A DNA stretch of 63,956 nucleotides, from IMG/VR virus record IMGVR_UViG_3300010397_000008, positions 1 to 63,956 of that record. The stretch is one strand, 5' to 3'. Source of the DNA: a virus. Its lineage: Duplodnaviria > Caudoviricetes. Below, piece after piece: positions 3,154 through 63,288 of the stretch. The translations under genes were made by a program, and so were the position numbers. The notes below the pieces were generated by a model that did no database searches, was not told the origin of the DNA, and saw only the letters and a program-made list of their open reading frames with translations. Every line of letters begins with the position of its first letter. The stretch's first letter is position 1.

Positions 3154-3596
3154 TGGGCTGCCTCCGCGTCGGTGAGGAAGCCGATGCCGAGTTTCGATAC
3201 GGCGGGCGTCTCGGTCGCAGGCGGCGGCAACGAGAACACCCCGTCGCGCTCGACCACCTTGCCGTCGCCAACCAGCGATGTCAGCGACCGAGCGAGCGCC
3301 GAATCGGTCAGTTCGCCGATGCGCTGCTCGACAAGGCTGCGAATCATCGGTGCCGACATTGGCGTCCCGCGCTCGGTGAGGATCGCAAGCACGGTGCCCC
3401 GAATGTCCCGTTTCTCGCGGCGTTCGGGCTCGGCGGGCGTCGGCGCCGGGTCAGTGGGCTCGGCCTGCGCCTGCCGGACGCGCGCGAGGACGTGCCGGAG
3501 CACCCCCAAGCGATCATTCAGCCGGTGTACCTGGCGCTCGGCCTCGGCGATGTCTTCCTCGATCTCGGCGCGCAGGATTTGAAGTTGGTCGGTCAC
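3150..3596 (-). CDS. Coiled-coil plus winged-helix protein
   Basis: N-terminal heptads; C-terminal wHTH-like VLAILTERG.PMS...LARSLTSLV.DGKV. Confidence 0.55.
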   Translation of the reverse strand: MTDQLQILRAEIEEDIAEAERQVHRLNDRLGVLRHVLARVRQAQAEPTDPAPTPAEPERREKRDIRGTVLAILTERGTPMSAPMIRSLVEQRIGELTDSALARSLTSLVGDGKVVERDGVFSLPPPATETPAVSKLGIGFLTDAEAAQ

Positions 3597-5740: not shown

Positions 5741-5782
5741 TTGACAGGCGTGCATCCTACGGCACGTAATGGGCGCACGCAA
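5741..5782. promoter_or_regulatory. Overlapping divergent sigma70 promoters with operator CGTGC-N8-GCACG (5749-5766)
   Basis: Rightward TTGACA(5741)...CGTAAT; leftward TTGCGT-N17-TAGGAT. Confidence 0.7.
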
Positions 5783-5803
5783 TAGGGTTCCTACCGACAG
5801 GGA

Positions 5804-6004
5804 ATGACGATGCCTGACGACCTGACTATCTGCGGGGAAGATGCGGCCTACCGCTACACGTGGCCCGGTCGAGACGAGTCGTTCGTTTGCGAGGAACACT
5901 CAAGAAAGATGCGGGCGGTGGCGGCCGCTATGGGTTTGCATCTTCAACTGATCCCAATCGAACCCGCAGTGGGCGAAGCCTGCCGCCAACAGGTTCGCCG
6001 ATGA
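5804..6004 (+). CDS. Small Cys-containing hypothetical protein
   Basis: First gene after the promoter; CCTACCGAC box before the RBS. Confidence 0.55.
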   Translation: MTMPDDLTICGEDAAYRYTWPGRDESFVCEEHSRKMRAVAAAMGLHLQLIPIEPAVGEACRQQVRR

Positions 6005-12883: not shown

Positions 12884-13264
12884 TCACAACAGCGACAGCA
12901 CTACCGGAAGCACCATGCCGGCGATCCGCGCCGCCATCTGGACATAGCCCAAGACTTGCGGCAACCAGGTCAGCGAGCTTTGGTCGGCATTTCCGGTCGA
13001 TCCGCTGAGCATCTGTTCGCAATAGGCGTAGGGGTAGACCGCGACATCCCGGACCATTTTCGGTGCCGCGGCGCCGGTCGCAGCGATCAGTGACGGGGCG
13101 GCGGCGACGCAGGTGTCCTTGATCGCCGCCAGATCGCCGGCCGATAGGTTGCGGACGCTGCCAACGGCGTAGTCTTGCGCCAGGTCGATGCCGGTCTGCT
13201 GGGCGCCACCTTGGCAACCCGCGAGGATGAGAGTGATGGCGGCGGCGGCGAGGATGCGGTTCAT
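12884..13264 (-). CDS. Lipoprotein (lysis region, possibly spanin-related)
   Basis: Signal peptide MNRILAAAAITLILAG-C with a lipobox. Confidence 0.65.
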   Translation of the reverse strand: MNRILAAAAITLILAGCQGGAQQTGIDLAQDYAVGSVRNLSAGDLAAIKDTCVAAAPSLIAATGAAAPKMVRDVAVYPYAYCEQMLSGSTGNADQSSLTWLPQVLGYVQMAARIAGMVLPVVLSLL

Positions 13265-13482
13265 GTCCGGGGGCTCCCGTCTGGATTGCGGGTGATCGCG
13301 ATGTTGGCCCACATGGCGCAATCGCGAAGCTGGCGCAACAGATAGGTCTTGTCGGGACCGTCCGGCACGATGCCGTCGATCTCGGTAGCAAGGCTCTCAA
13401 ATTCCGCTCGGACGTGCGCCATTATTTCAAGTTGCGCATCGGTCGGTTTGAGATATTGAAACGTCGAGGGGTGCAGGCTCAT
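13261..13482 (-). CDS. Acb2/Tad1-like helical-hairpin protein (candidate immune-signal sponge)
   Basis: FQYLKPT..Q......R..F..LA..I....PDG.DK...L..L....MWAN.AI pattern. Confidence 0.65.
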   Translation of the reverse strand: MSLHPSTFQYLKPTDAQLEIMAHVRAEFESLATEIDGIVPDGPDKTYLLRQLRDCAMWANIAITRNPDGSPRT

Positions 13483-24097: not shown

Positions 24098-25860
24098 TGC
24101 GCGGGCGCACCGTTCTTGTCATACGCCTTGCCAGCGTCGTCGTAGAACCGCTGCGTGCTCGGCGACCACCCTTTGAGCGTCATGCCCTTCAACGCCTCGG
24201 GCACAGGGGGTGGCGCGCTCGGCTGTCCGGCTGGCGCGGTGGTGGCAGGGGATGGAGACGATGGCACAGGCGACGGCTTCTCCGAATCAGCCTCACGCCT
24301 CGCCAGCATGCGTTCGGCGAACGTATTGACCGACTCCTTGAACTTCTTTTTGCCGCCGAACGCCAGTTGGTTGACATCGTGCACGCTGTACGGGACCGCC
24401 TTTTCGATCTCTTTTTGCAAGTTCCGCAGCAGTTCTTTTTGCGGCTCCTTCACGGCGTCCGACGACAGCATGGCGCGGATATTGGCCTCTGCGATCTGCC
24501 TAATCTCGGCATAGGATCGCATGACGGCGGTTCCAGACCAGCCTTTTTGCGGGACCAGAACATTGTTGGCCGTCGTGAGCCCGACCAGCCCTTGCGCGGC
24601 GCCCTGCGATTCGATGGTCGCCAGTTGCCGTTGAAGGCCGGTGAATTGCTGTGTCACGGCCAATGCCTGTTCACCGACAAGATGCGTCGCAGCCACGCGC
24701 CCGATTGCCGCCTTGAGGCTGTCCGGCTGTATCGACTGCAAACCCATGAACGCACCGGCATTTGAATCAATCGGCAACTCGACTAGGTTTTTCAGCGACG
24801 CCGCCAGTTCGCTGGTCGCGCCGATCAGCCTGTTGGCCTGCGACGCCGCCTGCCGGCCCTCGCTGCCGGGCGGCGCAGAATGGATCGTTTGCCCTGGTTG
24901 CAGTTGGATCGGCTGGTTATTGTCGGTTCGGACGATCTTGTTCTCACCGCGCATGCTTTCGCGGCCCATGACCCGCTCAACTTCTTTCCCTTGGGCGTCC
25001 CGGATGACGAACTCCTTGCTCGCGTGAAACTCCGGGGCGTTGGCGGCAGAGGCGTTCGAGGCTAGGTCATGCTGTGCCGCTCGGGCGTTCTTGTACCGCA
25101 ACTGCGCTTCGGGGTCGTTAGGGTTCTCCCGGAGCGCATTGCCAGCATCCAGAACCTCCTGGTTGACTTCGCCCGTTCGCCGCGCGGCCGCTGTCTGCGT
25201 TATCATCTGATCGGTGCGCGCCTTGCGCTCATTAGCGAGCGCCACGGCTTCGGTTAACTTCTCCCCCTTCGCAAACTGTTCCATCGGGCTATCGCCGAGC
25301 GCTACCGCCTTCGCGTTGAACAGCGCCAGCGCGCCCTTCGAGTCGGTCGCGATCATATCCAGCGCGTCCTTGTAGGACTCGTGCTGGTATTCGTAGAGCT
25401 TGAGGCTGTAGTCGCTCTCGGCCTTCCACTTGTCGAACGCCGTCTTGTACGCAGAGGCGTCCTTCGCCTGGTACGCCTTCATCACGTCAGCGGCGGCGTT
25501 GAGCGAGTTGAGCAGAGGGCGTTTGGTGAAGGCGCTGCCCAGCATCGCCATCGACATAGCGAGCGAGCCCCACGCCTCGACCGGGTTGGTATTCTGCATC
25601 GTCGGCGCGGGCTGCGGAGGCGGCATGGGAGGCTTTTGGAGCATCAGCGCGTGACGCGCGGCGTTCGATGCCTCCGTACTCTTGACCAGTTCGTCGCCGG
25701 CCGCTTTCAGCTTTTCTTGATGCGCCGCGCTCTCGCCCTTGACCTTGGCGATCTCGCCCGGCGTCGGCCCGGCCCCCATCGCGTTCGCAAAGCCGCTTGG
25801 CCCCGGCGGGATCGCCGATGGCACCGATGGCGGCTCGTCCCGCGTGGCGAGGTCGGACAC
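24094..25860 (-). CDS. Internal virion / DNA-ejection protein
   Basis: 588 aa, helical; position typical of podovirus ejection proteins. Confidence 0.65.
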   Translation of the reverse strand: MSDLATRDEPPSVPSAIPPGPSGFANAMGAGPTPGEIAKVKGESAAHQEKLKAAGDELVKSTEASNAARHALMLQKPPMPPPQPAPTMQNTNPVEAWGSLAMSMAMLGSAFTKRPLLNSLNAAADVMKAYQAKDASAYKTAFDKWKAESDYSLKLYEYQHESYKDALDMIATDSKGALALFNAKAVALGDSPMEQFAKGEKLTEAVALANERKARTDQMITQTAAARRTGEVNQEVLDAGNALRENPNDPEAQLRYKNARAAQHDLASNASAANAPEFHASKEFVIRDAQGKEVERVMGRESMRGENKIVRTDNNQPIQLQPGQTIHSAPPGSEGRQAASQANRLIGATSELAASLKNLVELPIDSNAGAFMGLQSIQPDSLKAAIGRVAATHLVGEQALAVTQQFTGLQRQLATIESQGAAQGLVGLTTANNVLVPQKGWSGTAVMRSYAEIRQIAEANIRAMLSSDAVKEPQKELLRNLQKEIEKAVPYSVHDVNQLAFGGKKKFKESVNTFAERMLARREADSEKPSPVPSSPSPATTAPAGQPSAPPPVPEALKGMTLKGWSPSTQRFYDDAGKAYDKNGAPAQ

Positions 25861-25861
25861 G

Positions 25862-27217
25862 TCACGCGGCCTTCAACGTGATCGTCCCGGCTCCCCCACC
25901 GCCAGCGCCGGCGAGCGCGCCAGCGAAATTGCCGATCGCGGACCCGAGCGCCTGGTCCTGGGCGAGCGCATCCCGACTTATGGCCTGGTAGATTTGGGCC
26001 GCCAGCCCCTCGGTGTTGACCGCCTGCCCGACCATCGCCGAACCCTGCGAGAGAAGCTGTAGCGCGATCTGCGCCGCGGCGTTGTGGGCGCGCTCGTGCG
26101 CTGCGGCGATGTCCTGCTGTTCCGCCGACGATCCCGACATGCCGCGATTCGCGTACCCGGACCTGATCTGCGCCTCGGCCGCGGCGGTCGCCGTCTTGAG
26201 GCCGTCCGAAAGCCCCGGCGGCAGCGTGCCGGTGTTTACGAACGATTCGAGTTGCTGCCCCTTGTTGGCCTGCGCGCCAGCCGTCGCCGCGAGGCTGTTC
26301 GCTGCGTTCCGAGTCTGCGCCTCGCCGGGGATCGGCTGGTTGCCTTTGAGCAGGTTCATGCCGAGGCCGCCCAAGGAAGCCGCAAGGCCGAGGTCTTTGC
26401 TGTTCAGCGCGCCGCCGGTGATGCTGCCGATCGCCTTGTCGAACCCGCTGGTCAAACCGCCGCCGGCGCTCGACGCGGAACTTGCGTCGCCGACACCGCC
26501 GGCCGTGGTCGCCCCCGTGGCGGGGTCAAAGCTCAAGACGCTGGTGCCGGGGCCGGCCTCGAACGTGTTGGTGAAGGTGCCCGTGGCCGCTGGCGACAAC
26601 TCCCCTATGCTGGACGGCACCGCTGACGCCGCCGCGCTGGGCAACGCGCTCGCGCCGACCGGCGACGCCGCGCTGGCCGGGACCGCCGGATTGGCAAGGT
26701 TCGCCAGCGGCGTGACGCCCTCGATGCCTGGAACCGAACCCGCCGGCACCGCGCCGGGGATGATGCCGCTGCTGCCGCCGCCGAGCGCCAAGTCCAATCC
26801 GCCGGAACCCGCGCCAGCAAAGTCAAGCGCACCGGCCCCTAGATCGAGCGCCCCCGCCCCGGCCGCACCCGCGCCAGCGCCGCCCAACGAAATCGCTTCG
26901 GGGATCGTGCTCGCCGCGCTGCCGGCTAGTTCGCCGGCCCCCAACAGGCCACCGCCCGCCAGAAGGTCGCCGGTGAACGCGCCGCCCGCCGCAGCCTCCC
27001 CCGCACCGATACCAGCGGCGGCAGCCTCGCCAGCCCCGATGCCAGCAGCGGCCTCACCAGCGCCAAAGAGGCCAGCCAACGCCTCACCGCCCAAGAGAAT
27101 GTCTCCAAGGGCAAAAATAGCGGAAAATGGGTCATGAAGGGTGGTGGGCGATCCCCACCGGAAAAATACGGCGCGGAATAGAGCCAAGATCAGCATTATC
27201 AGGACAAATTCGGGCAT
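25862..27217 (-). CDS. Gly/Ala-rich DNA-ejection (pilot) protein
   Basis: Gly/Ala-rich N-terminus; YANRGMSGSS.E motif. Confidence 0.65.
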   Translation of the reverse strand: MPEFVLIMLILALFRAVFFRWGSPTTLHDPFSAIFALGDILLGGEALAGLFGAGEAAAGIGAGEAAAAGIGAGEAAAGGAFTGDLLAGGGLLGAGELAGSAASTIPEAISLGGAGAGAAGAGALDLGAGALDFAGAGSGGLDLALGGGSSGIIPGAVPAGSVPGIEGVTPLANLANPAVPASAASPVGASALPSAAASAVPSSIGELSPAATGTFTNTFEAGPGTSVLSFDPATGATTAGGVGDASSASSAGGGLTSGFDKAIGSITGGALNSKDLGLAASLGGLGMNLLKGNQPIPGEAQTRNAANSLAATAGAQANKGQQLESFVNTGTLPPGLSDGLKTATAAAEAQIRSGYANRGMSGSSAEQQDIAAAHERAHNAAAQIALQLLSQGSAMVGQAVNTEGLAAQIYQAISRDALAQDQALGSAIGNFAGALAGAGGGGAGTITLKAA

Positions 27218-27666
27218 CTCCGGCTGATCTCCATCAGGCTGCCGTGGCGGCCGAAAGCCTCGCGGTCGCCGACCTTAACAAATCCCAGCCATTTCAGCCA
27301 CCGCAACGATTTTACCCAGCGATCATCCACAGCACATTGCAGCGTCGGCCATCGGGACAGGATTTCGCCGAGTTCGGCACGGGTTGTCCGCAGGAATCCT
27401 TTTTTGTCTCGCGCCACCGCTCCGGCGGCCGCCATCATCCAAAGGTACGGAGGATCGTCGAGCATCACGCCACCGACGAACACCACATGATTGCGATCGT
27501 CGCGGGCGCAAAACGAATAGGTCGAGCGGTCAAGGACGCGCAACAGCGCTCGGATCGGGTTGCCTTGCGAAAGACACGCCAATTCGGCTAGGTCATCATC
27601 GGCCAATGCGGATAGGAGTTCGGCAAGAGCCGCCGCAGATGCCGGGTGGTCAATGTGCATCAACAA
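27199..27666 (-). CDS. T7 gp13/DUF2833-like internal virion protein (GNAT-like fold)
   Basis: D.AEL...; YLWM; V......SLRWLKWLGF motif. Confidence 0.7.
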   Translation of the reverse strand: MLMHIDHPASAAALAELLSALADDDLAELACLSQGNPIRALLRVLDRSTYSFCARDDRNHVVFVGGVMLDDPPYLWMMAAAGAVARDKKGFLRTTRAELGEILSRWPTLQCAVDDRWVKSLRWLKWLGFVKVGDREAFGRHGSLMEISRRCPNLS

Positions 27667-27720
27667 GCGGGATGATGTCGGCGAGCGCCGCGACGAAGCC
27701 CTCGACTTGGCAGGTGACGG

Positions 27721-28266
27721 TCATCCCGCCAGCACCGCCGGGCTCTCCGGGTGCGTGTCGATAATCAGGTGAATCCTGGCCGCATCCCCCTCGTTCGCGC
27801 CCGAGTGCGCCACCTTGTTGTCGAGGGCGTAACAGACCCCCGCCGCAAGATGGTATTTCTCGCCGTCCACCGTCAGCCACGCCTTCGGGTTCGTTAAGAT
27901 CGGGACGTGAAAGCGCTCCGTGTTCGTGAAGTAGATGCCGGTGTCCGTGTGCTCGGCGATGACCCCGCCCGGCGACAGCCGCACCAGCATCGCCCGCGCC
28001 GGTCGGCCCTCCGTCCGAACGCAAATCTCGTCGATCGCCACGGCCAGCGCGCCGATGTGATGCCGCGTCGCCACCGAGGCCAACTGGTGCAGAATGTCGC
28101 GTGGCCTTGACCCAGGTTGTCGCCTCAAATGGATAACTTCGGAGTTCTTGTGCGGGGAGAACGGCAGCGTTTGTCTTAGCCGATCCTCGCCCCACAGGTC
28201 GTCAAAGGCCGGCAGCATATCGAGGATCGGCGTGATGTCGTAGGGGAACAGCTTGACGACTGACAA
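27721..28266 (-). CDS. Aspartyl/asparaginyl beta-hydroxylase-like 2OG-Fe(II) oxygenase
   Basis: L.PGG.I.EHTD...RFHVPI.TN...N...HS..N.G...RIHLI.D; TTG start with SD GGAGG. Confidence 0.85.
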   Translation of the reverse strand: MSVVKLFPYDITPILDMLPAFDDLWGEDRLRQTLPFSPHKNSEVIHLRRQPGSRPRDILHQLASVATRHHIGALAVAIDEICVRTEGRPARAMLVRLSPGGVIAEHTDTGIYFTNTERFHVPILTNPKAWLTVDGEKYHLAAGVCYALDNKVAHSGANEGDAARIHLIIDTHPESPAVLAG

Positions 28267-28307
28267 CGCAGCCTCCGAATTGGTGCGTTGCACCGTACCA
28301 CGGATCG

Positions 28308-28646
28308 TCAGATTTTCAACATCCCCCGCGCGGCGTTGATTTCGGTGAAAACCTGCCAGACCCACGCCTGCCGCTCGCGCTCGTCCTGTAAATCGACCGT
28401 CTCGATGTCGGCGCTCTGGACGTTCAACTCTTGGCAGATGTCACCGATGACGCCCGACACCCGCTCAAGCCACTCGCCGACCGCAGCCTCGGGGATCGGA
28501 AAAATCTGATATTCGACGAGGCTGACGCCCCGCTGCATGCGGAGCGCCTGGGTGATGTCCCTGACGTTTTGGTCGAGTTGGAAGCTCCACGAGGCCCAAT
28601 CGGATTGCTCGTGCGGGACGTTGAGCAGCGGTGCGGCGCTGGTCAC
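28308..28646 (-). CDS. Virion-module protein
   Basis: 112-aa ORF in the tail operon. Confidence 0.6.
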   Translation of the reverse strand: MTSAAPLLNVPHEQSDWASWSFQLDQNVRDITQALRMQRGVSLVEYQIFPIPEAAVGEWLERVSGVIGDICQELNVQSADIETVDLQDERERQAWVWQVFTEINAARGMLKI

Positions 28647-41315: not shown

Positions 41316-42383
41316 TTACAGGACGGCCGGCGGGCCAGGCGTGTTCGCCCACGCCGCGCCAGTGAGGCCGGTTAGATGCGCGCCCGAACTGGGTTTGGCG
41401 CATACCAGGTTGAGCGCGCTGATGAGCACGCCGATTTCGGCGATCTGGCCCTGCGGGATCGCGCTCTCGAAGCCCGAGAACACCATCGGGGCCGTGTACT
41501 CGCTGACGAACAGGCTGAGGTAGCGGCTGTTGATCGCGTACATCTCGCCGCGCGGGCAGAACGGGTCGGGGAAGATCGGCGTGTCGAGCACCCGCAGCGC
41601 GCGGAAGCCGGCATTGACCGGATCGTCCTTGCCGTACATCGACCGGGGCCGAGACTGGTACATCTCGTAGCCCATGAAGTCGGCGAGCACCGCCGACCAG
41701 TCGGCCGGGTTCATCACCGCAAAATCGGGCGCGTCGCCGCCGGCCCCGGTCGCGATCCGGGTCAGCGCGATCGCCATCCCCGTCCGGTTGCTGATGCCGG
41801 CGCTGTTCGGCAGGTATTGGCCCTGCCACCACGCATTCCCGGCCCGCGTGATCCCGCCATACGCCGGCACGTTCGCGCCCGCGTCATAGGCTTGCACGAG
41901 GCTGTCGAGCGCGTTCGGCGTCGCGTAGTTGTTCGAGTAGAGCGATTGCGCGAACGCCTGCTTGATGACGACCGCAGCGTCGCTCGTCACCGCCCGCAGC
42001 TTCGGGATGATGACCTCGCTCGACTGGGCCAGCGCCTCGAACCCGAAGAAGCCGATCGGGATCATGCCGATCTTGAGGTTGAACGTCGCGTTCTGAAGCG
42101 CGGCCACGTCCTCCGGCATTGGGAAGTCGCCGGCGAAGCTGCCCCACGAGAACGATACGAACGAGGCGCCCTGCGTCGGGATGGATATTTGGCCGACGCC
42201 GCCTTTTGCGCGCTGCGAGTTGGCCCACAGCAGGGAGAGCAAAGGGTGACTTTGGTAAATCTGGACAAATACGCTGGGGATAACTGCGCGCCGCGTGATA
42301 GCTGACAGTTGAGCCCCGAGTTGACCGCCAGGAGTCAAACCTCCGACAGTAGCCGGGGCCTGAAACGTCGAAGGATACGCCAT
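41316..42383 (-). CDS. Major capsid protein
   Basis: 355 aa after the scaffold gene; YGGITR, PIFPDPFCP.G.MY.INS.YL motifs; strongly biased codons. Confidence 0.85.
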   Translation of the reverse strand: MAYPSTFQAPATVGGLTPGGQLGAQLSAITRRAVIPSVFVQIYQSHPLLSLLWANSQRAKGGVGQISIPTQGASFVSFSWGSFAGDFPMPEDVAALQNATFNLKIGMIPIGFFGFEALAQSSEVIIPKLRAVTSDAAVVIKQAFAQSLYSNNYATPNALDSLVQAYDAGANVPAYGGITRAGNAWWQGQYLPNSAGISNRTGMAIALTRIATGAGGDAPDFAVMNPADWSAVLADFMGYEMYQSRPRSMYGKDDPVNAGFRALRVLDTPIFPDPFCPRGEMYAINSRYLSLFVSEYTAPMVFSGFESAIPQGQIAEIGVLISALNLVCAKPSSGAHLTGLTGAAWANTPGPPAVL

Positions 42384-44004: not shown

Positions 44005-44209
44005 AATGCAGAACCGCGATACGCTGTTTCATCGGTGGCGCAGGCGAATGGGCCTGACGCAAATGGCCGCAGCGGATCGGCTTGGCTACAGCATTCGACG
44101 AATACGGGCATTCGACAACGGCGAGGAAACCCCACCGCTGCGCACGCTGGTCGCCATGCAGGCGATCCGACACAATCTCCCGCCCTATTCCCTTGAGGAC
44201 GCAGCATGA
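44005..44209 (+). CDS. XRE-family HTH regulator
   Basis: WRRRMGLTQMAAADRLGYSIRRI..FDNG. Confidence 0.75.
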
Positions 44210-44562
44210 TCTACGAGACCAGCGAGATCGCGCGCATGGCGCACGAGGTCAACCGGGCCTATTGCGAGGCTTTGGGCGATCACAGCCAGAAGCCGTGGGA
44301 AGACGCGCCCGATTGGCAGCGCGCATCCGCGCTGAAAGGCGTCGATTTCCATCTGGCGAACCCGAGCGCCACGCCGGCAGCCTCACACGAAAGCTGGCTT
44401 CAGGAAAAGGCCGCCGCCGGATGGAAGTGGGGGCCGGAGAAGGATGAGGCGGCAAAAACGCACCCATGCTTCATGCCGTACACCGATCTGCCAATCGACC
44501 AGCGCGCCAAGGACTTTCTGTTCCGGGGCGTAGTTCGCGCCATGTCGGGAGACGCAGCATGA
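44206..44562 (+). CDS. RyR-domain protein
   Basis: HESW...K...GW.WG..KD...KTHPC..PY..LP..Q..KD. Confidence 0.85.
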   Translation: MIYETSEIARMAHEVNRAYCEALGDHSQKPWEDAPDWQRASALKGVDFHLANPSATPAASHESWLQEKAAAGWKWGPEKDEAAKTHPCFMPYTDLPIDQRAKDFLFRGVVRAMSGDAA

Positions 44563-52971: not shown

Positions 52972-53100
52972 ATCGGCAGGACGTGCATCCTATGGCACGA
53001 AGCCGCCTTGCCGCAAGCCGGAAACGAAACACCCCCGCGCTTGGGGCTACGGGGGTGATCGCGCAATCCTTGTTGACGCCGGCGCGGCATTCGCTAGGAT
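52972..53100. promoter_or_regulatory. Divergent promoters with operator CGTGC-N8-GCACG (52982-52999)
   Basis: Leftward TTGCGG-N18-TAGGAT; rightward TTGACG(53073)-N16-TAGGAT; hairpin at 53032-53057 between them. Confidence 0.6.
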
Positions 53101-55609: not shown

Positions 55610-55680
55610 CGTACGCTTGACGGCACGCGCATATCAACGAGATTAGCGTTCCTACCGATACGCAACCTACCGACACGGAG
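55610..55680 (+). promoter_or_regulatory. Promoter with operator variant CGTAC-N8-GCACG and two CCTACCGA(C/T) boxes
   Basis: TTGACG at 55617; boxes at 55651 and 55666 before SD GGAG. Confidence 0.6.
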
Positions 55681-55686
55681 CGAGCG

Positions 55687-55893
55687 ATGTACACAATCGA
55701 GACACGGCGGACTTACGGCTCGGGCTGGCTACAACTTGGTCAGCGGAGATCGCGCGAGGATGCGCAATGGCTGGCAATCGACATTTCCCGCGAGCTTGAT
55801 CGGACAACCCGCGTTGTCCGCTACGGTAAACGATTTGAGCTTATCTCCGAGCATGACGCACTTGGCGGTAGCATCCCGAAGCGGGAGGGCTAA
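55687..55893 (+). CDS. Hypothetical early protein
   Basis: SD GGAG; first gene after the promoter. Confidence 0.55.
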   Translation: MYTIETRRTYGSGWLQLGQRRSREDAQWLAIDISRELDRTTRVVRYGKRFELISEHDALGGSIPKREG

Positions 55894-55896
55894 ACC

Positions 55897-57117
55897 ATGC
55901 GAGTTTCCTCCTACGATGCGGCTGCGCTTGAGGCGCAGATTGGCGCGCGCGGCGCCGCTGCGGTGAACAGCGGCAATCGCGCGCTGGTGCAAAACTGGCT
56001 CGTTGCCAATGGCGTCCCGAGCGTGCGCGCGAAGGCCATGAAGGTCACGACGCTTTGGAAATGCTACAACAAGCCGCGGTATCTCTCGGCAGTGCTGGCC
56101 TATGTCGAATCGCATGGCGCGGCGCCGGATATCGACACGCGGATTGACGACATGCCGGCGCCAGTTGATGCGCCGCTGCTCGACGATCCGGCGCCCGCGA
56201 TCACCACACCAGCCTACGCAACAGCGTTGCCGGCAGTCGCGCCCAACGACGCAGGCGCCCAGCTTGCCGCGCTGATAACCTCGCTGGCCGCTGGGGCGAT
56301 CAACGAGGCTCGTGTGATCGAATTGATCGCCGAGCATGCGCCACGGCCGCGGCAACATGAAATCGTCGTCGTCGATACTGTTGGCGAGCGCCGCGCGATC
56401 GGGACGCAGCATCGGCAGTTCGAACAACTGTTGCGGGCATGCGCGGCGCGCGATCATAGCGGCAATCGGCTCAATATCTGGCTTGCGGGTCCGGCCGGGA
56501 GTGGGAAGACGACAGCGGCCGAGAATGTCGCGAAAGCGCTCGGCCTCGCGTTTCACTTCAACGGCGCCATCGACAACGAGTACAAGCTGCTCGGCTTCAC
56601 GGACGCCAACGGCCGCATCGTGTCGCGGCCGTTCCGGGAAGCCTATCAGAATGGTGGCGTGTACCTGTTTGACGAGGTGGATCGCTCGTTGCCGGGCGCC
56701 CTGTTGGCGTTCAATGCGGCGCTCGCGAATGGTGTTTGCGACTTCCCGGACGGGACGATCGCGCGGCATCCCGATTGCGTCATCATCGCGGCCGGCAACA
56801 CTTGGGGCTTGGGCGGCACGACGCAGTATGTCGGCGCCATGAAGCAGGATGCGGCATTCGTTGATCGCTTCGCGTTCCTGCTATGGGAAATCGACGAAGC
56901 GCTAGAAACCGCTGCCTGCCCGAATGCGGAATGGTGCAGCTACGTGCAGCGGGTCCGGGAGCGCGTCGTCGCCAATGGCGTGCAAGGCGTCATGGTGTCG
57001 CCCCGCGCGTCGTTTATCGGCGCCTCGCTGTTGGCGGCAGGGCTCGACCGCGACACGGTTATCGCGATGACGATCCGCAAAGGTATGAGCGCCGAGCAAT
57101 GGGGAGCGGTAGCATGA
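55897..57117 (+). CDS. MoxR/CbbQ(CobS)-type AAA+ ATPase
   Basis: GPAGSGKT; YLFDEVD; AAGNT.G.G....YVG....D.A..DRF; SPRAS. Confidence 0.9.
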   Translation: MRVSSYDAAALEAQIGARGAAAVNSGNRALVQNWLVANGVPSVRAKAMKVTTLWKCYNKPRYLSAVLAYVESHGAAPDIDTRIDDMPAPVDAPLLDDPAPAITTPAYATALPAVAPNDAGAQLAALITSLAAGAINEARVIELIAEHAPRPRQHEIVVVDTVGERRAIGTQHRQFEQLLRACAARDHSGNRLNIWLAGPAGSGKTTAAENVAKALGLAFHFNGAIDNEYKLLGFTDANGRIVSRPFREAYQNGGVYLFDEVDRSLPGALLAFNAALANGVCDFPDGTIARHPDCVIIAAGNTWGLGGTTQYVGAMKQDAAFVDRFAFLLWEIDEALETAACPNAEWCSYVQRVRERVVANGVQGVMVSPRASFIGASLLAAGLDRDTVIAMTIRKGMSAEQWGAVA

Positions 57118-57923
57118 TCCGGCGCTATGACTGCATCGCGGCCGTGGCGCGCGATGCAAAATCTCGGGCAGTGCTGCGCTCGCCGAGCGGCCGCAGCGAT
57201 TGGTTCAGCGGCGAAACTGGCTTGGAAAGCGTATCGCTGGCGCTGCGTGGCGATACGCGATTGGTCCCCGACGCCGAGCGGCTGCTGTCGCAGATTGACG
57301 CTGCAATTGACGTGCAGCACCGGGAATTGATCGCCGATCGCGTCGGCGCCTACCCTTGCGTCCCGGAATACCTGCAAGGCGTCCCTGACTGCATGCGGCG
57401 CCGGGCGCCCGTGGAGAATGAAGCGGCGCCGGTGGCGATCTATGTCGTGCTGGCATGCTCGGCGAGCATTGATGCGGCAACGCTGTTGCGGCGCGGTGTC
57501 GCGATACTGGCGCTGGCAATGGCGCTGGCGCGGCATCGGCCGATCGAATTGAACATCGTTCATATCGGCGACAGCAACACGGCCGGCGAAACCGAAAGCG
57601 TCATGGTGGCGCCGATCAATACCCGGCCGCTCGATTTGGCGAGCGCGGCCTACGTGCTGACATCGGCCGGTTTCGTGCGCCATGTCTGTTTCGGGCTGCA
57701 AATGGCCGATCGCGGGTTCACCGGCGGCTGGCCCGCCGATTGGCGCGTCAACAAGCCAGCTTACTTCGCAGGGCTGTTGCGGCGGCTCGGCGGCGATCCG
57801 GCGCGCGACATCATCATCGGCTCGGCCGATCATGGCGACGAATTGTTGGCCGATCCGGTGGCATGGGTAAACGGACAGATCGCCCGCTTTCGGGACGGTG
57901 CCGAGATGGGAGTCGCAGCATGA
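57114..57923 (+). CDS. Divergent vWA-like partner of the AAA+ ATPase
   Basis: G..P.VP.YL.G.P..M; ACSAS MIDAS-like site; RG.AI.AL. Confidence 0.65.
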   Translation: MIRRYDCIAAVARDAKSRAVLRSPSGRSDWFSGETGLESVSLALRGDTRLVPDAERLLSQIDAAIDVQHRELIADRVGAYPCVPEYLQGVPDCMRRRAPVENEAAPVAIYVVLACSASIDAATLLRRGVAILALAMALARHRPIELNIVHIGDSNTAGETESVMVAPINTRPLDLASAAYVLTSAGFVRHVCFGLQMADRGFTGGWPADWRVNKPAYFAGLLRRLGGDPARDIIIGSADHGDELLADPVAWVNGQIARFRDGAEMGVAA

Positions 57924-58354
57924 GCGCCGCACGCTGGCTCGCCAATGCCCGAGCGGCGCACACGCGCGCGCTCGGGAGCACGCAAGCCTTCCCGCTGTTC
58001 GGCGATGGCGATCACGTCGCCGGCATCCTGACGGGACAGGTCGAGCGCGACCCCGACGTTGCCGGCGCGGCGCTGGCCGAGGCGCGCTATCGGGACTGGC
58101 AGCACGCGCGCATGACCGGCGCGGCCGACACCAGCGCATTCGGGACAGCGGGCGCCTACACGTCGCCGCCGCCGCTGGCGTTGACGCCGGATGACGTGCC
58201 TGCGGTTCAGACCCGGCTTACCCTGCCCTCGCGCCAGCGCACGCGCACGCCGCTGGACGACGCTGCGGCGATCATCAAGGGCCTGGTGGACGAGTTCGGC
58301 GACCTGTTCCCGGACGAGTGCGCAGCGGCCGTGGCGTGGCTGGCGCGGCAATGA
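57920..58354 (+). CDS. Hypothetical protein
   Basis: ATGA-coupled ORF. Confidence 0.5.
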   Translation: MSAARWLANARAAHTRALGSTQAFPLFGDGDHVAGILTGQVERDPDVAGAALAEARYRDWQHARMTGAADTSAFGTAGAYTSPPPLALTPDDVPAVQTRLTLPSRQRTRTPLDDAAAIIKGLVDEFGDLFPDECAAAVAWLARQ

Positions 58355-58683
58355 CCGAGCCCGCGCCGCCGCTGATCGTCCTGACCGAGCGCGAGGCGCT
58401 GGCGGCGCTGTTCACCGTCGCGGCGATGCACCAAGGCTGGTACGTGTACAGGATGAACGAATTTTACCCGCGCACGTCTGACCCGCTGCCCTTTGTCGGA
58501 TATGCGGCTTTTGATGGCTTGACGAGACCTGTCGCCCCGCTTTGGGCGTGGCGCGCAGGCGATGGGGCGTATGGGCTGATGTTGCCGGACGATATGGCGA
58601 TCCACGTCGTCGCCACCGGGCGCGTTGACCGCGGCCTCGGGGCGATCACCCCACATAAGACCGCCCCGGACGCCAGCGCGTGA
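58351..58683 (+). CDS. Hypothetical protein
   Basis: ATGA-coupled ORF. Confidence 0.5.
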   Translation: MTEPAPPLIVLTEREALAALFTVAAMHQGWYVYRMNEFYPRTSDPLPFVGYAAFDGLTRPVAPLWAWRAGDGAYGLMLPDDMAIHVVATGRVDRGLGAITPHKTAPDASA

Positions 58684-58689
58684 ACGCGG

Positions 58690-58728
58690 CGAAACCGGGG
58701 CGGAATGTCCTACCGACTAGGAACCCCG
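58690..58728 (-). ncRNA. Candidate trans-acting antisense sRNA (seed GUCGGUAGGAC)
   Basis: Leftward promoter CTTGCA(58760-58755)-N17-CTATGT(58737-58732); nested stems CGGGG/CCCCG and UCCUA/UAGGA; complementary to leader boxes. Confidence 0.5.
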
Positions 58729-58731
58729 CAC

Positions 58732-58796
58732 ACATAGGGCACGACGAAAATAAATGCAAGCGTGCCGTTGACAGCACGAAACGCAGGGATTACGAT
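58732..58796. promoter_or_regulatory. Back-to-back promoters with operator CGTGC-N8-GCACG (58761-58778)
   Basis: Rightward TTGACA(58768)-N17-TACGAT(58791). Confidence 0.75.
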
Positions 58797-58833
58797 TGTT
58801 TTCGTTACCTACCGACACCGACAGGAGCACACC

Positions 58834-58977
58834 ATGTCAGCCTTTATCGTCTCTCACGACCACATCGACGCGATCGCTCGCAGCCTCGAAAGTCGGATGC
58901 CAGCGGCGATATTTCACCCAAGGCATGCCACCATCGACGGCCCCGACCTCGGGCGCGATGGGAGGACCATCCCATGA
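58834..58977 (+). CDS. 47-aa leader ORF (MSAFIVSHDHIDAIA...), possibly a truncated gene
   Basis: SD AGGAG; ATGA-coupled to the ATPase. Confidence 0.5.
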   Translation: MSAFIVSHDHIDAIARSLESRMPAAIFHPRHATIDGPDLGRDGRTIP

Positions 58978-59993
58978 AAATCAGCGCCCTGATCGAGACG
59001 ATCAAATCGCAGTACCGGCAACCGCCCGAGCGGCGGCGCCCGATCTTCGCGCAAGGCGTGCCAGGCGTCGGCAAGAGCCAGGCCGCCGAGACCGCCGCCG
59101 CCGACCTCGGCATAGGGTTCATGTCGCTGCAAGCCACGATTGAAGACCCGATTACGCTCTCGGGGCTGCCGGCGCGCGACGTGTACGTTGACGGCATGCA
59201 ATCGGTGCCGACCAACGAGGCGGTGTTCCTGCCTTTTCGCGACAAGCTCCCCTCGCGCGGTGAGGGTGTGCTGTGCATCGACGAAATCAACACCGCCGCC
59301 CCGATGGTACAGGCCGGGCTTTATGACCTGTTTCTGCACGGCAAGCTCGGCTCGTACCGCCTTCCGACCGGCTGGTACGTGATGGCGACCGGCAATCGGG
59401 ACGAGGATCGCGCCGCGACGCAGCGTATTCCGATGCCGCTCATCGGCCGCTGGACGCGGGTTGTCGTCGAAGTGGACCTCGCCGACTGGACGAAATGGGC
59501 GCTGGTCAATGCGATCCGAACCGAGATGATCGCGTTTTTCCAGTTCCGCCCCGAGCTTTTCCACACGTTCGACCCCAAGAAGGCCGAGCCCTATTGTTGC
59601 CCGCGCACGGCGGTTTTCGCCTCGCACATCATCGATTCTGCCCCGCCGGGACTTGAGCACGAACTGCTCTGCGGGACGATCGGCGAGGGCGTGGCAACCG
59701 AACTGGTCGCGTTCATGCGGGTGTTTCGGGAGATGATTTCGCCCGACGCGATCCTACTCAATCCGGCCACTGCACCTGTCCCGACCGAACCGGCTGCCGC
59801 CTGCGCCATCGCTGCGGCGCTTGCGCACAAGGCAACGGAGTCGAACTTCGGGCGGGTGCTGACCTACGCGAACCGGATGCCGGCCGAATACGGCGTGTTG
59901 ATCGTCAAGTTGGCGACGCACCGCGATATCCGGTTGAACGCGACCCGCGCGTTTATCGAGTGGGCGGCGGCGAATACGGATGTTGTGCTGTGA
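58974..59993 (+). CDS. MoxR-type AAA+ ATPase
   Basis: GVPGVGKS; LCIDEIN; ATGNR..DRA; PRT. Confidence 0.9.
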   Translation: MKISALIETIKSQYRQPPERRRPIFAQGVPGVGKSQAAETAAADLGIGFMSLQATIEDPITLSGLPARDVYVDGMQSVPTNEAVFLPFRDKLPSRGEGVLCIDEINTAAPMVQAGLYDLFLHGKLGSYRLPTGWYVMATGNRDEDRAATQRIPMPLIGRWTRVVVEVDLADWTKWALVNAIRTEMIAFFQFRPELFHTFDPKKAEPYCCPRTAVFASHIIDSAPPGLEHELLCGTIGEGVATELVAFMRVFREMISPDAILLNPATAPVPTEPAAACAIAAALAHKATESNFGRVLTYANRMPAEYGVLIVKLATHRDIRLNATRAFIEWAAANTDVVL

Positions 59994-60349
59994 GCGCCGT
60001 GAAACCTGGCTTCGCGTTGGTGATCCAATGCGACGAATGCCCTTGGCGCCGTGATGTCCCGACCGGGAATTTCCCGCCGGAGCGGTATGCGGCCCTCGCC
60101 AACAGTTGCCGGCAAGGCTATCCGCCAGCGCCGATGTTCGCTTGCCACAAGACCCCGGAGGGCAAAGAGCAAGCGTGTGTTGGCTATCTGCTTCGCAACG
60201 GCACCAACAACATTGCCGTGCGGATTGCCGCAGCAGAGGGCCGCGTCAAGTTGCGCGCCCTACAGGTTCGTGGCCCGCTCTATGACGGATTTCGGGCGAT
60301 GGCGGTCGCTAACGGGTACGACCCCGGCGACGATTCAGATTTGGCATAA
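59990..60349 (+). CDS. DUF6283-like Cys-rich protein
   Basis: C..CPWRRD...F.CH......C.G.L. Confidence 0.7.
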   Translation: MSAVKPGFALVIQCDECPWRRDVPTGNFPPERYAALANSCRQGYPPAPMFACHKTPEGKEQACVGYLLRNGTNNIAVRIAAAEGRVKLRALQVRGPLYDGFRAMAVANGYDPGDDSDLA

Positions 60350-60375
60350 TCCACCTACCGACAGGAGAAATCACA

Positions 60376-61266
60376 ATGACCCTCACCACGAAAGCCATGC
60401 TCTGCCGCATGCAAATCCGCATGTGGACCGCTCGCCGATTTGATCGGGACACGTCGGAGGAAATCGCCGACCTGCACGGGGCGACCGACGCGGGCCGCTT
60501 CAATAAGCTGCTCCTGCCCAAGACGGCGCTCGCCGGCATGCAGTCGGCTGCAACCGCGCTGCGTACCCACCACGCGGCCAACACGCTGCCGTGGACGCTT
60601 GACGGCGTGGGGCTGCTGCCTGCCACCAACTACTTCCCGTACATGGCCGAGCACAAGCGGCTCGCGATCATGTTCGACCTCGCTAAAGAGGCGTTCCTTG
60701 AGGGCTTCGCCGCGGCAAAGGGCTCGGCCAAGGTGAGCCTGGGCGACCTCTACCGCGAGGATGAGTACCCGACCGCCGACGACCTCGCCGGGCGCATCGG
60801 GTGCGCGGTCAATGTGTGGCCGCTGCCCGACGCCGGCGACTTCCGGGTGGACCTCGGGAACGCCGAGGAAGCCCGCATCCGCGCCGACATCGAGGCGTCG
60901 GTCAACGATGCCGTGGGGGCGGCGGTGCGCTCGCTGTGGCAGCGGGTGCACGACACGGTGTCCGCGATGCACGAGCGGTTGACCAAATTCCACCGGGACG
61001 ACGACGGCAAGGTCAAGAACCCCTTTCGGGACAGCCTTGTTACGAACATGCGCGAGTTGGTGGACCTGATGGCACGCTTGAACGTCACCGACGACGCTGC
61101 GCTCGAATCGATGCGGCGGCGGCTGGCCGAAAAGTTGTGCCCCATTGATCCCGACGACCTGCGCGCGAATGACGAACTTCGGGCGATCCAAGCAGCCGAG
61201 TGCGCTGCCGTGCTCGATTTGATGGCCGCGTATACCGGCGCGGCTCCCGCGCTCGCTGCGGAGTGA
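60376..61266 (+). CDS. DUF3150-like helical phage protein
   Basis: W...R.D; KLL; TLPW...G..LLP; Y...EYP motifs. Confidence 0.65.
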   Translation: MTLTTKAMLCRMQIRMWTARRFDRDTSEEIADLHGATDAGRFNKLLLPKTALAGMQSAATALRTHHAANTLPWTLDGVGLLPATNYFPYMAEHKRLAIMFDLAKEAFLEGFAAAKGSAKVSLGDLYREDEYPTADDLAGRIGCAVNVWPLPDAGDFRVDLGNAEEARIRADIEASVNDAVGAAVRSLWQRVHDTVSAMHERLTKFHRDDDGKVKNPFRDSLVTNMRELVDLMARLNVTDDAALESMRRRLAEKLCPIDPDDLRANDELRAIQAAECAAVLDLMAAYTGAAPALAAE

Positions 61267-61841: not shown

Positions 61842-62128
61842 CCCTAGACCAAATGCGCAAGCTGTGGCCCATCGCGAAGTTGCTGCACGAGGCGCGGCAG
61901 CAGATCGCCCCCACGGCGCTCGGCGGGCAGGCGTGGCCCGAGTGGACCCCGGCCTACCCGCACAACCCGATCGCGTTCGTGGACATTGCGCTCGCGCAGG
62001 CGGCGGCGGTGGAGCCGGTGGTTGATGCGCTGGCAGCGATTGAGAGAAGCACCGATTACGGCGGTGACGGCGATGATCGACCTCTGATGCGTGCGGCCCG
62101 CGCTGCTTTAGCCAAGGTGACGCCATGA
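61838..62128 (+). CDS. Hypothetical protein
   Basis: SD GGAGG; ATGA-coupled. Confidence 0.55.
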   Translation: MTLDQMRKLWPIAKLLHEARQQIAPTALGGQAWPEWTPAYPHNPIAFVDIALAQAAAVEPVVDALAAIERSTDYGGDGDDRPLMRAARAALAKVTP

Positions 62129-63288
62129 CCCCGACCGAAACCGCTCGCGCGCGGATATCGAAGGCCCGCGCTGCTTTAATTTTGTCCCAGCCCTTCTGGG
62201 CCGCGCTCGCGCTGCGCCTCGACGTGCAGCCGATGCCGGCGAACGTCGCGTGCTCCACGATGGCAACCGATGGAAAATACCTTTGGTTCAACGCTGACTT
62301 TGTGCTCGACCAAAAACCCGAGCATCTTGTCACCATCGTTGCGCACGAGGCCGGGCATTGTGCCCTGCAACACCCGATGCGCCGGCAGGGGCGCGACCCG
62401 GCGCGCAGTAATATTGCCGAAGATCACGCGGTAAATCTGCTGCTCAAGGGCTCGGGATTCCCAATGCCGAAAGGTGCCTACTGCGACCCGCAGTACACCG
62501 ATTGGGCGTTCGAGCGGATTTACCCGCTGATCCCCGAGCAACCGCCGGCGCGTGGCGGCAACTACGGTGGCATGGGGTGCGTGGTGGACGCCTCGGGCGA
62601 CGGCGGCCAAGCGCTCTCGCAGGCCGACCGCGAGGCGATGGAGCGGGAATGGAAGATCGCGCTCATACAGGCCGCACAGGCGGCCAAGGCGCAGGGGAAG
62701 TTGCCGGGGTGCCTGGAAGGGCTGATCGAGTCGGTTCGCGCGCCTGCGGTGGACTGGCGCGCCGTTCTGCGGGAGTTCGTGCGCTCGGTCGCCGCCAACG
62801 ACTATTCGTGGCGTCGGGCTAATCCGCGCTTCCTCGCCACCGGCGATTACCTGCCGAGCCTGTGGAGCGAGGAAATCGGCCCGCTGGCGATCGGGGTGGA
62901 CACCAGCGGCTCGGTGAGCCAAGCCGAATTGGAGGCGGTGTGCTCGGAGTTGAACGGCATCCTCGATACCGTCAAGCCCGAGTTTGTCGCTGTTGCCTAT
63001 GCCGACGCTCGCGTGCATTCGCACGAGGTTTTTAAGCCCGACGATTGGCCGGTTAAGATGGCGGTGCAAGGCCGCGGCGGGACAGATTTGCGGGGTCTGT
63101 GGCCGTATTTCGATAAACACGACATAACGCCATGCTGCGCGATCGTTTGTACCGACATGGAACTGCGTGTCGCTGACCTCGGCGAAGAACCGCCCTATCC
63201 CGTCCTGATCTGCACCACCGGACGCATGGAGCCGATGGACGGGCCGGTTGCCTTTGGTCAAGTCATCAAGGTCGAGTTGTCGCCGTGA
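62125..63288 (+). CDS. DUF2201-type HExxH metallopeptidase-like + vWA protein
   Basis: TMATDG, HEAGH...H..R, N.A.D..VN; vWA DTSGS...GRGGTD...TD. Confidence 0.9.
   Translation: MTPTETARARISKARAALILSQPFWAALALRLDVQPMPANVACSTMATDGKYLWFNADFVLDQKPEHLVTIVAHEAGHCALQHPMRRQGRDPARSNIAEDHAVNLLLKGSGFPMPKGAYCDPQYTDWAFERIYPLIPEQPPARGGNYGGMGCVVDASGDGGQALSQADREAMEREWKIALIQAAQAAKAQGKLPGCLEGLIESVRAPAVDWRAVLREFVRSVAANDYSWRRANPRFLATGDYLPSLWSEEIGPLAIGVDTSGSVSQAELEAVCSELNGILDTVKPEFVAVAYADARVHSHEVFKPDDWPVKMAVQGRGGTDLRGLWPYFDKHDITPCCAIVCTDMELRVADLGEEPPYPVLICTTGRMEPMDGPVAFGQVIKVELSP

Follow-up and report, generated by a model that had tools for sequence, protein, structure and literature searches.

A nine-nucleotide box at the ribosome-binding sites of an uncultured soil phage, with a candidate antisense RNA as its reader

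Introduction

Why should a box that marks ribosome-binding sites also stand, in the same orientation, at a place where no gene follows? The question is raised by position 58709 of the IMG/VR virus record IMGVR_UViG_3300010397_000008. The stretch analysed here, called the window, is the complete record, 63,956 bp of a tailed-phage genome with 64% GC. It contains the 9-mer CCTACCGAC, hereafter the box, upstream of a Shine-Dalgarno (SD) sequence and start codon at several operons, and once, at 58709, without a gene (the orphan copy). An earlier note on this DNA, made from its letters alone, had proposed that the orphan is transcribed leftward into an antisense small RNA that pairs with the other copies. 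We find that the box is well supported as an RNA-level, phage-specific control element. As to what reads it, a minus-strand antisense small RNA would be the best single explanation, at a probability of about 0.45.

Results

The box stands in sense orientation beside ribosome-binding sites

An exact count on both strands gave five copies of CCTACCGAC, at 5790, 55666, 58709, 58808 and 60354, all on the plus strand and none on the minus strand. Shuffled sequences contain 0.31 copies on average, and none of 100 shuffles reached five. All five copies lie outside the crude gene calls and are intergenic, as had been claimed, in a genome of which 18% is non-coding. The contig is also present in a public soil metagenome-assembled genome (MAG) of 4.2 Mb, in which the 64-kb phage contig accounts for 5 copies of the 9-mer and the other ~4.1 Mb for 6 (36 for a reversed-pattern control). 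The MAG is labelled Ramlibacter sp., which is a binning outcome and no host assignment; the alphaproteobacterial host type implied by the promoter label of the earlier note is unsupported.

Four of the five copies are directly followed by an SD (AGGGA, GGAG, AGGAG and AGGAG), then by ATG at 5810, 55687, 58834 and 60376, with 11–17 nt between the end of the box and the ATG. Two variant boxes, CCTACCGAT and CCTGCCGAT, are present as the earlier note had read them, and all three of their differences from the orphan copy are G-U compatible. The boxes of the window and the open reading frames (ORFs) that they precede are the following.

5790–5798, plus strand: leader box before ORF 5810–6004; gives the best predicted duplex with the candidate RNA described below (−27.1 kcal/mol, rank 1 of 90).
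55651–55659 (CCTACCGAT) and 55666–55674 (CCTACCGAC), plus strand: tandem boxes before small ORF 55687–55893 and the CobS-like gene 55897–57117.
58709–58717, plus strand: orphan box CCTACCGAC, then SD-like AGGAAC (58719–58724) without a start codon.
58808–58816, plus strand: leader box before small ORF 58834–58977, which overlaps the start of the MoxR-like gene 58974–59993.
60354–60362, plus strand: intercistronic box, 4 nt past the stop of gene 59990–60349 and before the DUF3150-like gene 60376–61266.
52972–52980, minus strand: variant box CCTGCCGAT, abutting GGAGGA, with ATG at 52959; before the first gene (52959–52636) of the late operon (terminase/structural).
3168–3177, minus strand: possible degenerate box CCTCACCGAC, 2 nt before GGAGG of the leftward gene 3153–2941.

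Including five boxes of the relative described below, all 11 gene-linked boxes (6 in the window) are in sense orientation and lie 0–8 nt from the SD. The distance from upstream promoter-like hexamers to the box is variable (~3–60 nt), and only the 9-mer is kept among copies, the surrounding promoter sequence being different. Three boxes (window 60354, relative 17818 and 20005) are intercistronic, directly after a stop codon and without a promoter, which argues that the element acts in the mRNA. Inspection of the leaders also revealed that the core ACCGAC is doubled in tandem in the MoxR-operon leader (58811–58822) and that the CobS-operon leader holds two whole boxes 15 nt apart (55651–55674), which may offer two registers for binding or places for two reader molecules.

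Two box-led operons open with small, poorly conserved ORFs, of 47 aa (58834–58977) and 68 aa (55687–55893). The 47-aa ORF ends in an overlap with the start of its ATPase gene (58974), and the 68-aa ORF ends 3 nt before the other ATPase start (55897), so that control of the small ORFs could reach the ATPases by translational coupling.

Two other roles for the box were discarded. At −2.2 to −5.1 kcal/mol, the CCT/AGG fold over the SD which the earlier note had described is marginal and no more stable than in shuffles, and a mini-hairpin sequestering the SD was rejected as the mechanism. An extension of the SD/anti-SD pairing was rejected by reasoning alone, since the box, on the 5' side of the SD, is past the point where 16S rRNA has its 3' end.

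Palindromes at the same promoters

A palindrome, CGTGC-N8-GCACG, has three exact copies (5749–5766, 52982–52999 and 58761–58778) where 0.39 are expected and none of 100 shuffles reached three. Each lies in a promoter region adjoining a box, and a copy with one mismatch (55610–55627) is found at a fourth such promoter. Only the exact copies are enriched, the one-mismatch class (10 against 10.25 expected) having been discarded. The palindrome is probably the operator of a dimeric DNA-binding regulator and, as such operators would stand at the box promoters, it is very likely that a regulator of this kind exists. The premise of the earlier note that the phage has no evident CI protein is thus unsafe. 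Two candidate regulators were noticed, a weak RHH-like ORF (55560–55081, minus strand) below the Pfam cut-off and ORF 5720–5358 (minus strand), without family match.

Could the box itself work as double-stranded DNA, an operator to which a repressor or activator binds as a roadblock or close to the promoter? Several boxes are promoter-proximal, and a regulator is probable, given the palindromes at three of the same promoters and the weak RHH-like ORF. An orientation-free operator is nevertheless hard to reconcile with a non-palindromic box that is sense relative to the downstream gene in 11 of 11 cases, with a spacing tied to the SD and not to promoter hexamers, and with the intercistronic boxes; moreover, a conventional operator is already supplied by the palindromes. 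We consider this explanation very improbable, and DNA sites acting independently of orientation, an alternative named in the earlier note, are not indicated.

The box has changed in concert in a relative

Scans of IMG/VR viral contigs found the box only in one contig, G001, and in a fragment that duplicates part of it (L002; L001 is itself part of G001). G001 is 22,224 bp long and syntenic with positions 40239–61266 of the window, with amino-acid identities of 41–92% overall and 59–74% in the box-bearing module. Its copies are the following.

CCTACCGAA: leader of the small ORF preceding the CobS-like gene.
CCCACCGAA: leader of a gene specific to G001.
CCCACCGAA: leader of the small ORF preceding the MoxR-like gene.
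CCCACCGAA: between the ATPase stop codon, which it directly follows, and the DUF3150-like gene.
CCCACCGA followed by AGGAAC: gene-less copy at the orthologous place, after a GC hairpin.
ACCACCGAG followed by AGGA: late leader.

The pattern CCYACCGA occurs in G001 seven times on the window-like strand, five of them regulatory copies, and once on the other strand (controls, 1 and 1). Three boxes, those of the orphan and of the MoxR and DUF3150 leaders, read CCTACCGAC in the window without exception, and in G001 each of them reads CCCACCGAA, which stands there at four places, the gene-less one included. Position 3 has gone from T to C at four of the five orthologous sites, and none of the five has kept position 9. 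In G001, 12 nt are identical between the gene-less copy and the leader that follows. A parallel change at dispersed sites implies a phage-specific trans-acting reader, or else gene conversion, and it shows, for these two genomes, that selection acts on the gene-less copy. The covariation of seed and boxes that the earlier note had proposed to look for in relatives is thus seen in this pair.

The orphan is a conserved island with a leftward promoter-like element

Downstream of the orphan box the first ATG, GTG or TTG in any frame is 36 nt away, and no conserved ORF underlies the orphan on either strand, apart from the end of the plus-strand gene 58351–58683, which has a homologue in G001. That no gene follows this copy, as first reported, is therefore borne out. 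Three coding explanations were examined and dropped: a small peptide gene from ATG 58705 (10 codons against 22 in G001, unconserved, its SD buried in a hairpin), ATGCAA mini-ORFs (whose starts are ~30 nt from AGGAA) and a conserved minus-strand ORF (tblastn E of at least 0.55, whereas the plus-strand gene has its homologue). The intergenic DNA of the window and G001 aligns in three blocks only, namely ATGTCC-box-AGGAAC, AAAATAA(A)TGCAA and the leader box. The orphan is the first of these, a conserved island in DNA that is otherwise unalignable. The features around it are as follows.

58731–58759, minus strand: leftward promoter-like element, TTGCAT (58759–58754), 17-nt spacer and TATGTG (58736–58731); includes CGTGCCCTATG (58743–58733).
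58768–58796, plus strand: rightward promoter TTGACA-17-TACGAT, overlapped by the palindrome CGTGCCGTTGACAGCACG (58761–58778).
58661–58703: GC-rich hairpin of two nested stems, the outer one of 9 bp (CCGCCCCGG/CCGGGGCGG); its loop holds the stop codon of the plus-strand gene 58351–58683.
58653–58724, minus strand: predicted antisense RNA of ~72 nt with putative ends; 5' GUUCCUAGUCGGUAGGACAU (anti-SD and anti-box), the long GC hairpin, then UCUUAUGU.

The leftward element is back to back with this rightward promoter, which is that of the MoxR operon. The letters CTTGCA-N17-CTATGT that the earlier note had taken for a promoter are present (58760–58732, minus strand). On the minus strand of the window the order is TTGCAT, 17 nt, TATGTG, 7 nt, TTCCTAGTCGGTAGGACAT, the 43-nt GC hairpin (58703–58661) and TCTTATGT. 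In G001 it is TTGCAT, 17 nt, TAGGCT, 7 nt, TTCCTTCGGTGGGGACAT, a hairpin of other sequence and the same architecture (CCCCCGCGC/GCGCGGGGG) and CTTCCGCTTTTAGGG. The spacing from TTGCAT to the anti-SD TTCCT is exactly 30 nt in both phages, and these 30 nt differ in sequence. A conserved island, a promoter-like element at fixed spacing and a stable hairpin make a minus-strand small RNA a coherent model. An inverted repeat, ACGAAAATAA/TTGTTTTCGT, that flanks the rightward promoter is not kept in G001 and was set aside.

The leftward element resembles promoters of genes. The motif CGTGCCNTAKG, to which the −10 region CGTGCCCTATG belongs, has three copies in the window, all on the minus strand, the other two lying before the leftward gene 5720–5358 and before the leftward late operon. 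The extended class TTGCNN-N10/11-CGTGCCNTAKG likewise has exactly three members (5756–5766, 52989–52999 and 58733–58743, all minus). In G001, the 15-mer TTGCATTATTTTGCG at the orphan is matched twice more with up to 3 mismatches, each time on the minus strand; one of these matches immediately precedes the late leader box. The resulting three matches against 0.08 in shuffles, like the counts for CGTGCCNTAKG, are inflated by the definition of these motifs after the sites had been seen. This likeness to gene-linked leftward promoters is the best available evidence that the orphan may be transcribed leftward.

The hairpin at 58661–58703 is a candidate terminator for the leftward RNA, for the rightward operon or for both. 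Its loop, of more than 8 nt, makes the terminator scan blind to it. The tail is more U-rich on the minus than on the plus strand; in the window, 5 of the 8 positions of the U-tract that follows the hairpin are U.

Position relative to promoters also bears on the possibility that the box works at the level of transcription. Alone or with AGGA, it could be part of a promoter/leader cassette or a promoter for phage-modified RNA polymerase; the gene-less copy would then be an extra rightward promoter, or the remnant of a cassette, upstream of the MoxR operon. Consistent with this, four of the six window boxes lie 1–25 nt downstream of sigma-70-like hexamers, the 5–8 nt from AGGA to ATG are typical of the spacing from −10 to start, TAGGAT recurs in the genome as a −10-like hexamer, and a distant phage (L144) has long repeated operator-hairpin-ribosome-binding-site cassettes. 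However, among copies just the 9-mer is kept and not its promoter surroundings, three intercistronic boxes have no upstream hexamers, and the distance from promoter to box varies over 3–60 nt whereas that from box to SD is tight. A start downstream of the box would, in addition, remove the SD that is kept at every site. A family screen, which covered 49 of the ~92 predicted proteins, gave no integrase, repressor, sigma-factor, RNA-polymerase or RNA-chaperone family match, so that neither a polymerase nor a sigma factor was found among the proteins screened. We regard a transcription-level element as unlikely.

The candidate RNA is predicted to pair with the boxes of its own phage

No operon has the complement of the box on its sense strand (all five copies plus, none minus), and only antisense transcription of the orphan could therefore supply it. 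Folding energies are −38.3 kcal/mol (z −4.2) for the predicted RNA of 72 nt and −41.6 (z −3.3) for its G001 equivalent. The seed of the window RNA pairs, by Watson-Crick or G-U pairs, with six of six window boxes, and the G001 seed with four of five, the exception being one edge mismatch in the late leader. In RNAduplex predictions, the five box leaders took ranks 1–5 of 90 translation-initiation regions (−23.0 to −27.1, with a median of −12.9), a ranking that is partly circular as the leaders were chosen by their box. The possible degenerate box CCTCACCGAC pairs only with one base bulged, at rank 8 of 90 (−19.7).

In 10 of 10 leaders, the RNA of the same phage pairs better than that of the other, and the asymmetry agrees with G-U rules: the window RNA meets A-C mismatches in G001 leaders, and the G001 RNA would keep G-U pairs with window leaders. 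Relative to the orphan copy, five of six box substitutions are C-to-U or A-to-G, and still pair with the predicted RNA. A rough binomial estimate for such a proportion of wobble-compatible changes gives 0.006–0.036, according to the assumed transition bias. In G001, the single target with T retained still pairs, as G-U, with the changed seed, which suggests a neutral route for the change of specificity.

The circularity of the ranking and the inflated motif counts weigh against the antisense RNA, and so do the following points. In neither the window nor G001 does a scan with an E. coli-type consensus flag a terminator or a leftward promoter at the orphan. In the leftward element, TATGTG lacks the usual final T. 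The G001 15-mer would have to serve as −10 at the late promoter and as −35 at the orphan. The energies of the hairpin favour neither strand, the plus strand folding about equally well, and its U-tract in G001 is only 3 of 8. The seed is partly buried in the 5-bp hairpin TCCTA/TAGGA, which, as the earlier note had it, is predicted around the orphan box. At the extreme, shuffled seeds reach the fifth-best value of −23.0. At position 1 of the G001 late leader, one of the six substitutions gives a mismatch, and the change of position 9 from C to A has no neutral path. Only two genomes, the window and G001, are informative, L002 being a duplicate. A search of sequencing runs for the phage gave one DNA run, from a soil metagenome that is possibly its source, and no RNA run. 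Distant phages, finally, carry other SD-adjacent signatures with no gene-less copy seen. Of the original proposal, then, the strand-specific element next to the SD, the covariation and the conserved orphan island have stood, and the promoter has not been flagged by consensus scans.

A protein or the ribosome as a possible reader of the box

These distant signatures bear on another explanation, in which the box, with its SD, is an operator in the mRNA and there is no antisense RNA. It would be read by a protein, such as a phage translational repressor or activator or an endoribonuclease, or by the ribosome as an enhancer or standby site. The gene-less copy would then act as a decoy, or serve for processing or autoregulation in RNA that reads through from the upstream operon. 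That 11 of 11 boxes are sense-oriented and next to an SD fits such an operator equally well, the concerted change of the box also fits protein co-evolution, and the tandem boxes at 55651/55666 and the doubled ACCGAC core suit a multimeric protein. In Cluster K mycobacteriophages, an analogous asymmetric gene-start motif has a reader described as "either RNA or protein" (PMC3203893, PMC12699233). The signatures CTCACGAAAGGAA in L133, ACTCGAAAGGAC in G005 and the loop CUGGAAAC in G017, for which no gene-less copy was seen, indicate that such motifs need no antisense RNA.

An mRNA operator leaves unexplained that an SD-like AGGAAC without start codon is kept at the orphan and that the orphan keeps a fixed distance of 30 nt to an element of the leftward promoter class in both phages, and it does not predict substitutions restricted to wobble. 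Among the screened proteins there was no Hfq, ProQ, CsrA, KH or S1-like match, a weak argument as most of them have no family at all. On balance we hold a protein or ribosomal reader to be the main rival of the antisense RNA, less probable than it and yet a real possibility. That chance, or something we have not considered, accounts for the pattern seems to us quite improbable.

The distant signatures themselves are diverse. G017, a contig with the CobS-like/DUF7192 cassette (CobS-like protein 58% identical), has three leaders (L113 7958–8003, 10456–10506 and 10964–11013) in which a 5-bp hairpin with differing stems and the constant loop CUGGAAAC is followed by AAAGGAAAC and ATG. The hairpin is thus another leader signature, lineage-specific and at orthologous places. 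L133, L144 and G005 are phages with a DUF3150-like gene or a related capsid. In L133, CTCACGAAAGGAA occurs five times before ATG (6141, 6801, 7949, 8911 and 11948). The cassettes of L144 (1258, 3431 and 6145) consist of CACTTACTTAGGAG with an upstream hairpin and a palindrome, and G005 has the SD-fused motif ACTCGAAAGGAC (minus strand, 25381–28640). Start-associated motifs look widespread in this loose group of phages.

Gene setting and relatives

The structural/terminase block of the window is leftward (~17–53 kb), with rightward and leftward non-structural blocks on both flanks. The genes of the box-bearing module and its surroundings are these.

55897–57117, plus strand: CobS-like AAA protein (phrog_249).
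57114–57923: DUF7192.
58974–59993, plus strand: MoxR-like ATPase (phrog_1297).
59990–60349: DUF6283.
60376–61266, plus strand: DUF3150-like protein.
62125–63288: DUF2201 metallopeptidase/VWA protein.

The phage is remote from any isolate. A blastn search of 50,697 phage records gave no match to it, and tblastn with the ATPase, terminase and DUF3150-like proteins gave at most 31–34% identity. A search of public genome contigs for relatives returned the record of the window only, and metagenome contigs yielded one relative, at 36% identity and 42% GC, without related motif. In 300 other genomes of the family of the MAG, three distant ATPase homologues were found (34–38% identity); the orphan-locus pattern had no match in 400 other genomes of its order.

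The putative major capsid protein (41316–42242, minus strand) is 92% identical in G001, and 105 relatives at 64–92% are found in IMG/VR (including L016–L095). The MoxR-like ATPase was absent from 15 of 15 longer capsid-relative contigs tested, and of the 105 capsid relatives a single one was found to carry the early region that holds the box system. Modular mosaicism is strong among the capsid relatives. In 922 kb of 80 capsid loci, CCYACCGA occurred 45 times, nearly always in coding sequence and at most twice near an SD.

Other observations concern the genome as a whole. The copy in the public MAG is 63,977 bp long, and its surplus of 21 bp over the window looks like a trimmed assembly overlap, which would mean a complete genome, circular or terminally redundant. 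A 73-aa ORF (13261–13482, minus strand) matches the Acb2/Tad1 hairpin domain (PF24729, E 1.4e-8, 35.2 bits for a cut-off of 27). It is a probable anti-defence gene, because Acb2/Tad1 is a family of phage sponges for CBASS/Thoeris signalling nucleotides. A 118-aa ORF (44206–44562, plus strand) with an RyR domain (PF02026, E 1.4e-10) forms a rightward island within the leftward structural block.

Discussion

The closest described phenomenon is that of the start-associated sequences (SAS) of Cluster K mycobacteriophages. These are asymmetric motifs in a single orientation immediately upstream of the start codons of non-structural genes, rare in the host and kept across related phages at genes of different families, with a reader, "RNA or protein", that was left undetermined; in K1 phages a single copy lies away from a gene start, in opposite orientation (PMC3203893, PMC12699233). 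The box is alike in being an asymmetric motif, in one orientation, upstream of start codons and in multiple copies, and also in being rare outside the phage contig in the MAG and kept in a related phage at genes of several families. The SAS differs in being 13 bp long (GGGATAGGAGCCC), in containing the SD core and in lying 3–7 bp from the start, whereas the box has 9 nt, lies 5' of the SD and stands 11–17 nt from the ATG. There are 11–19 copies of the SAS against 6–7 here, where one copy heads the late operon. The odd copy of K1 phages is inverted, whereas the gene-less copy here has the common orientation and is preceded by a leftward promoter-like element. The hosts are Actinobacteria in one case, and the phage is a GC-rich soil phage of proteobacterial type in the other. 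By the consensus given in the same papers, with at most 2 deviations from GGGATAGGAGCCC, no SAS is present at these sites; CCTACCGAC with its variable SD is unrelated in sequence (PMC3203893, PMC12699233).

The antisense RNA proposed here would share its logic with known small RNAs. In the c4 RNA (immI) of P1 and P7, a short loop or seed of this phage RNA pairs around the ribosome-binding site and blocks translation, with a specificity that differs between the related phages (PMC12197685). Pairing at the ribosome-binding site and a difference in specificity between phages are what the candidate would have in common with c4. Processing releases c4 from the transcript that also carries its one target (ant/icd), whereas the candidate would be divergently transcribed and act on at least five separate leaders; no link to an antirepressor or to lysogeny was seen for it. 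The whole genome has no Rfam match at the gathering threshold, and at E of at most 10 the region 58560–58900 gives only an unrelated chance match (E=4). With an RNA that is divergently transcribed and not processed from a target transcript, membership of the c4 or P4 CI families, with which the earlier note had compared it, is not sustained.

The CI RNA of P4 (seqA/seqB/seqC immunity) is a small RNA that acts on short, repeated and complementary leader boxes, without a protein repressor, and small RNA control through such boxes is what the candidate would share. CI causes premature transcription termination in the operon that encodes it, and the P4 boxes lie away from ribosome-binding sites, whereas the boxes here abut the SDs of several operons and protein operators are present too. 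In RybB/OmrA-type small RNAs the seed is at the extreme 5' end, a strong hairpin is at the 3' end, and multiple targets share a box near the SD. The same architecture is predicted for the candidate, which differs in being phage-encoded and aimed at the operons of the phage itself.

How would such an RNA act? The box would be an mRNA element directly 5' of the SD in at least five transcription units, those of the CobS-like, MoxR-like and DUF3150-like modules, of ORF 5810 and of the first late gene, and the orphan at 58709 would be the gene for its trans-acting reader. The leftward promoter TTGCAT-N17-TATGTG would start a non-coding RNA at ~58724, of which the first ~20 nt (5'-GUUCCUAGUCGGUAGGACAU) complement box and SD, and which would end at the GC hairpin 58703–58661. 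By pairing with a leader (9 bp plus SD purines, G-U included), the seed would block access to the ribosome-binding site and reduce translation; in operons that open with small overlapping ORFs, the coupled downstream genes would be lowered too. What we infer from these features is that the orphan is transcribed, where its RNA begins and ends, that it pairs in vivo and in which direction it regulates. Immunity, which the earlier note had suggested, finds no support, in keeping with a set of screened proteins that contains no integrase. A temporal switch, from early to late, would be the more likely role, because the promoter of the RNA resembles the leftward late promoter and that at 5720.

In its fullest form, the proposal is that one phage RNA of ~70 nt, started at a late-class promoter that stands back to back with an early one, would silence the translation of at least five of its own operons through a shared 9-nt box at the ribosome-binding site. 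Its specificity would drift between phages through G-U intermediates, the seed changing first from A to G and the targets then singly from U to C, with one G001 target still U. The result would be an RNA-defined regulon, serving as a timing or exclusion code. We give this version, tentatively, somewhat less than an even chance.

To our knowledge, the phage small RNAs known to act on phage genes (c4, CI, OOP, sar) act on one target or operon. Co-ordination of several operons by one phage RNA, through a leader box that they share, would, if true, be a new regulatory layout. The reader of the Cluster K SAS has not been identified since 2011 (PMC3203893; still open in PMC12699233). An antisense RNA, if true, would be a concrete answer to that question, and could be the long-sought reader for motifs of the start-associated type in other phages. 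Even with a protein reader, the box marks a co-regulated set of genes that otherwise lack annotation, with the leaders of the CobS-like/DUF7192, MoxR-like/DUF6283 and DUF3150-like genes and of the late operon, and would be a portable, orthogonal element of translational control from an uncultured lineage of soil phages.

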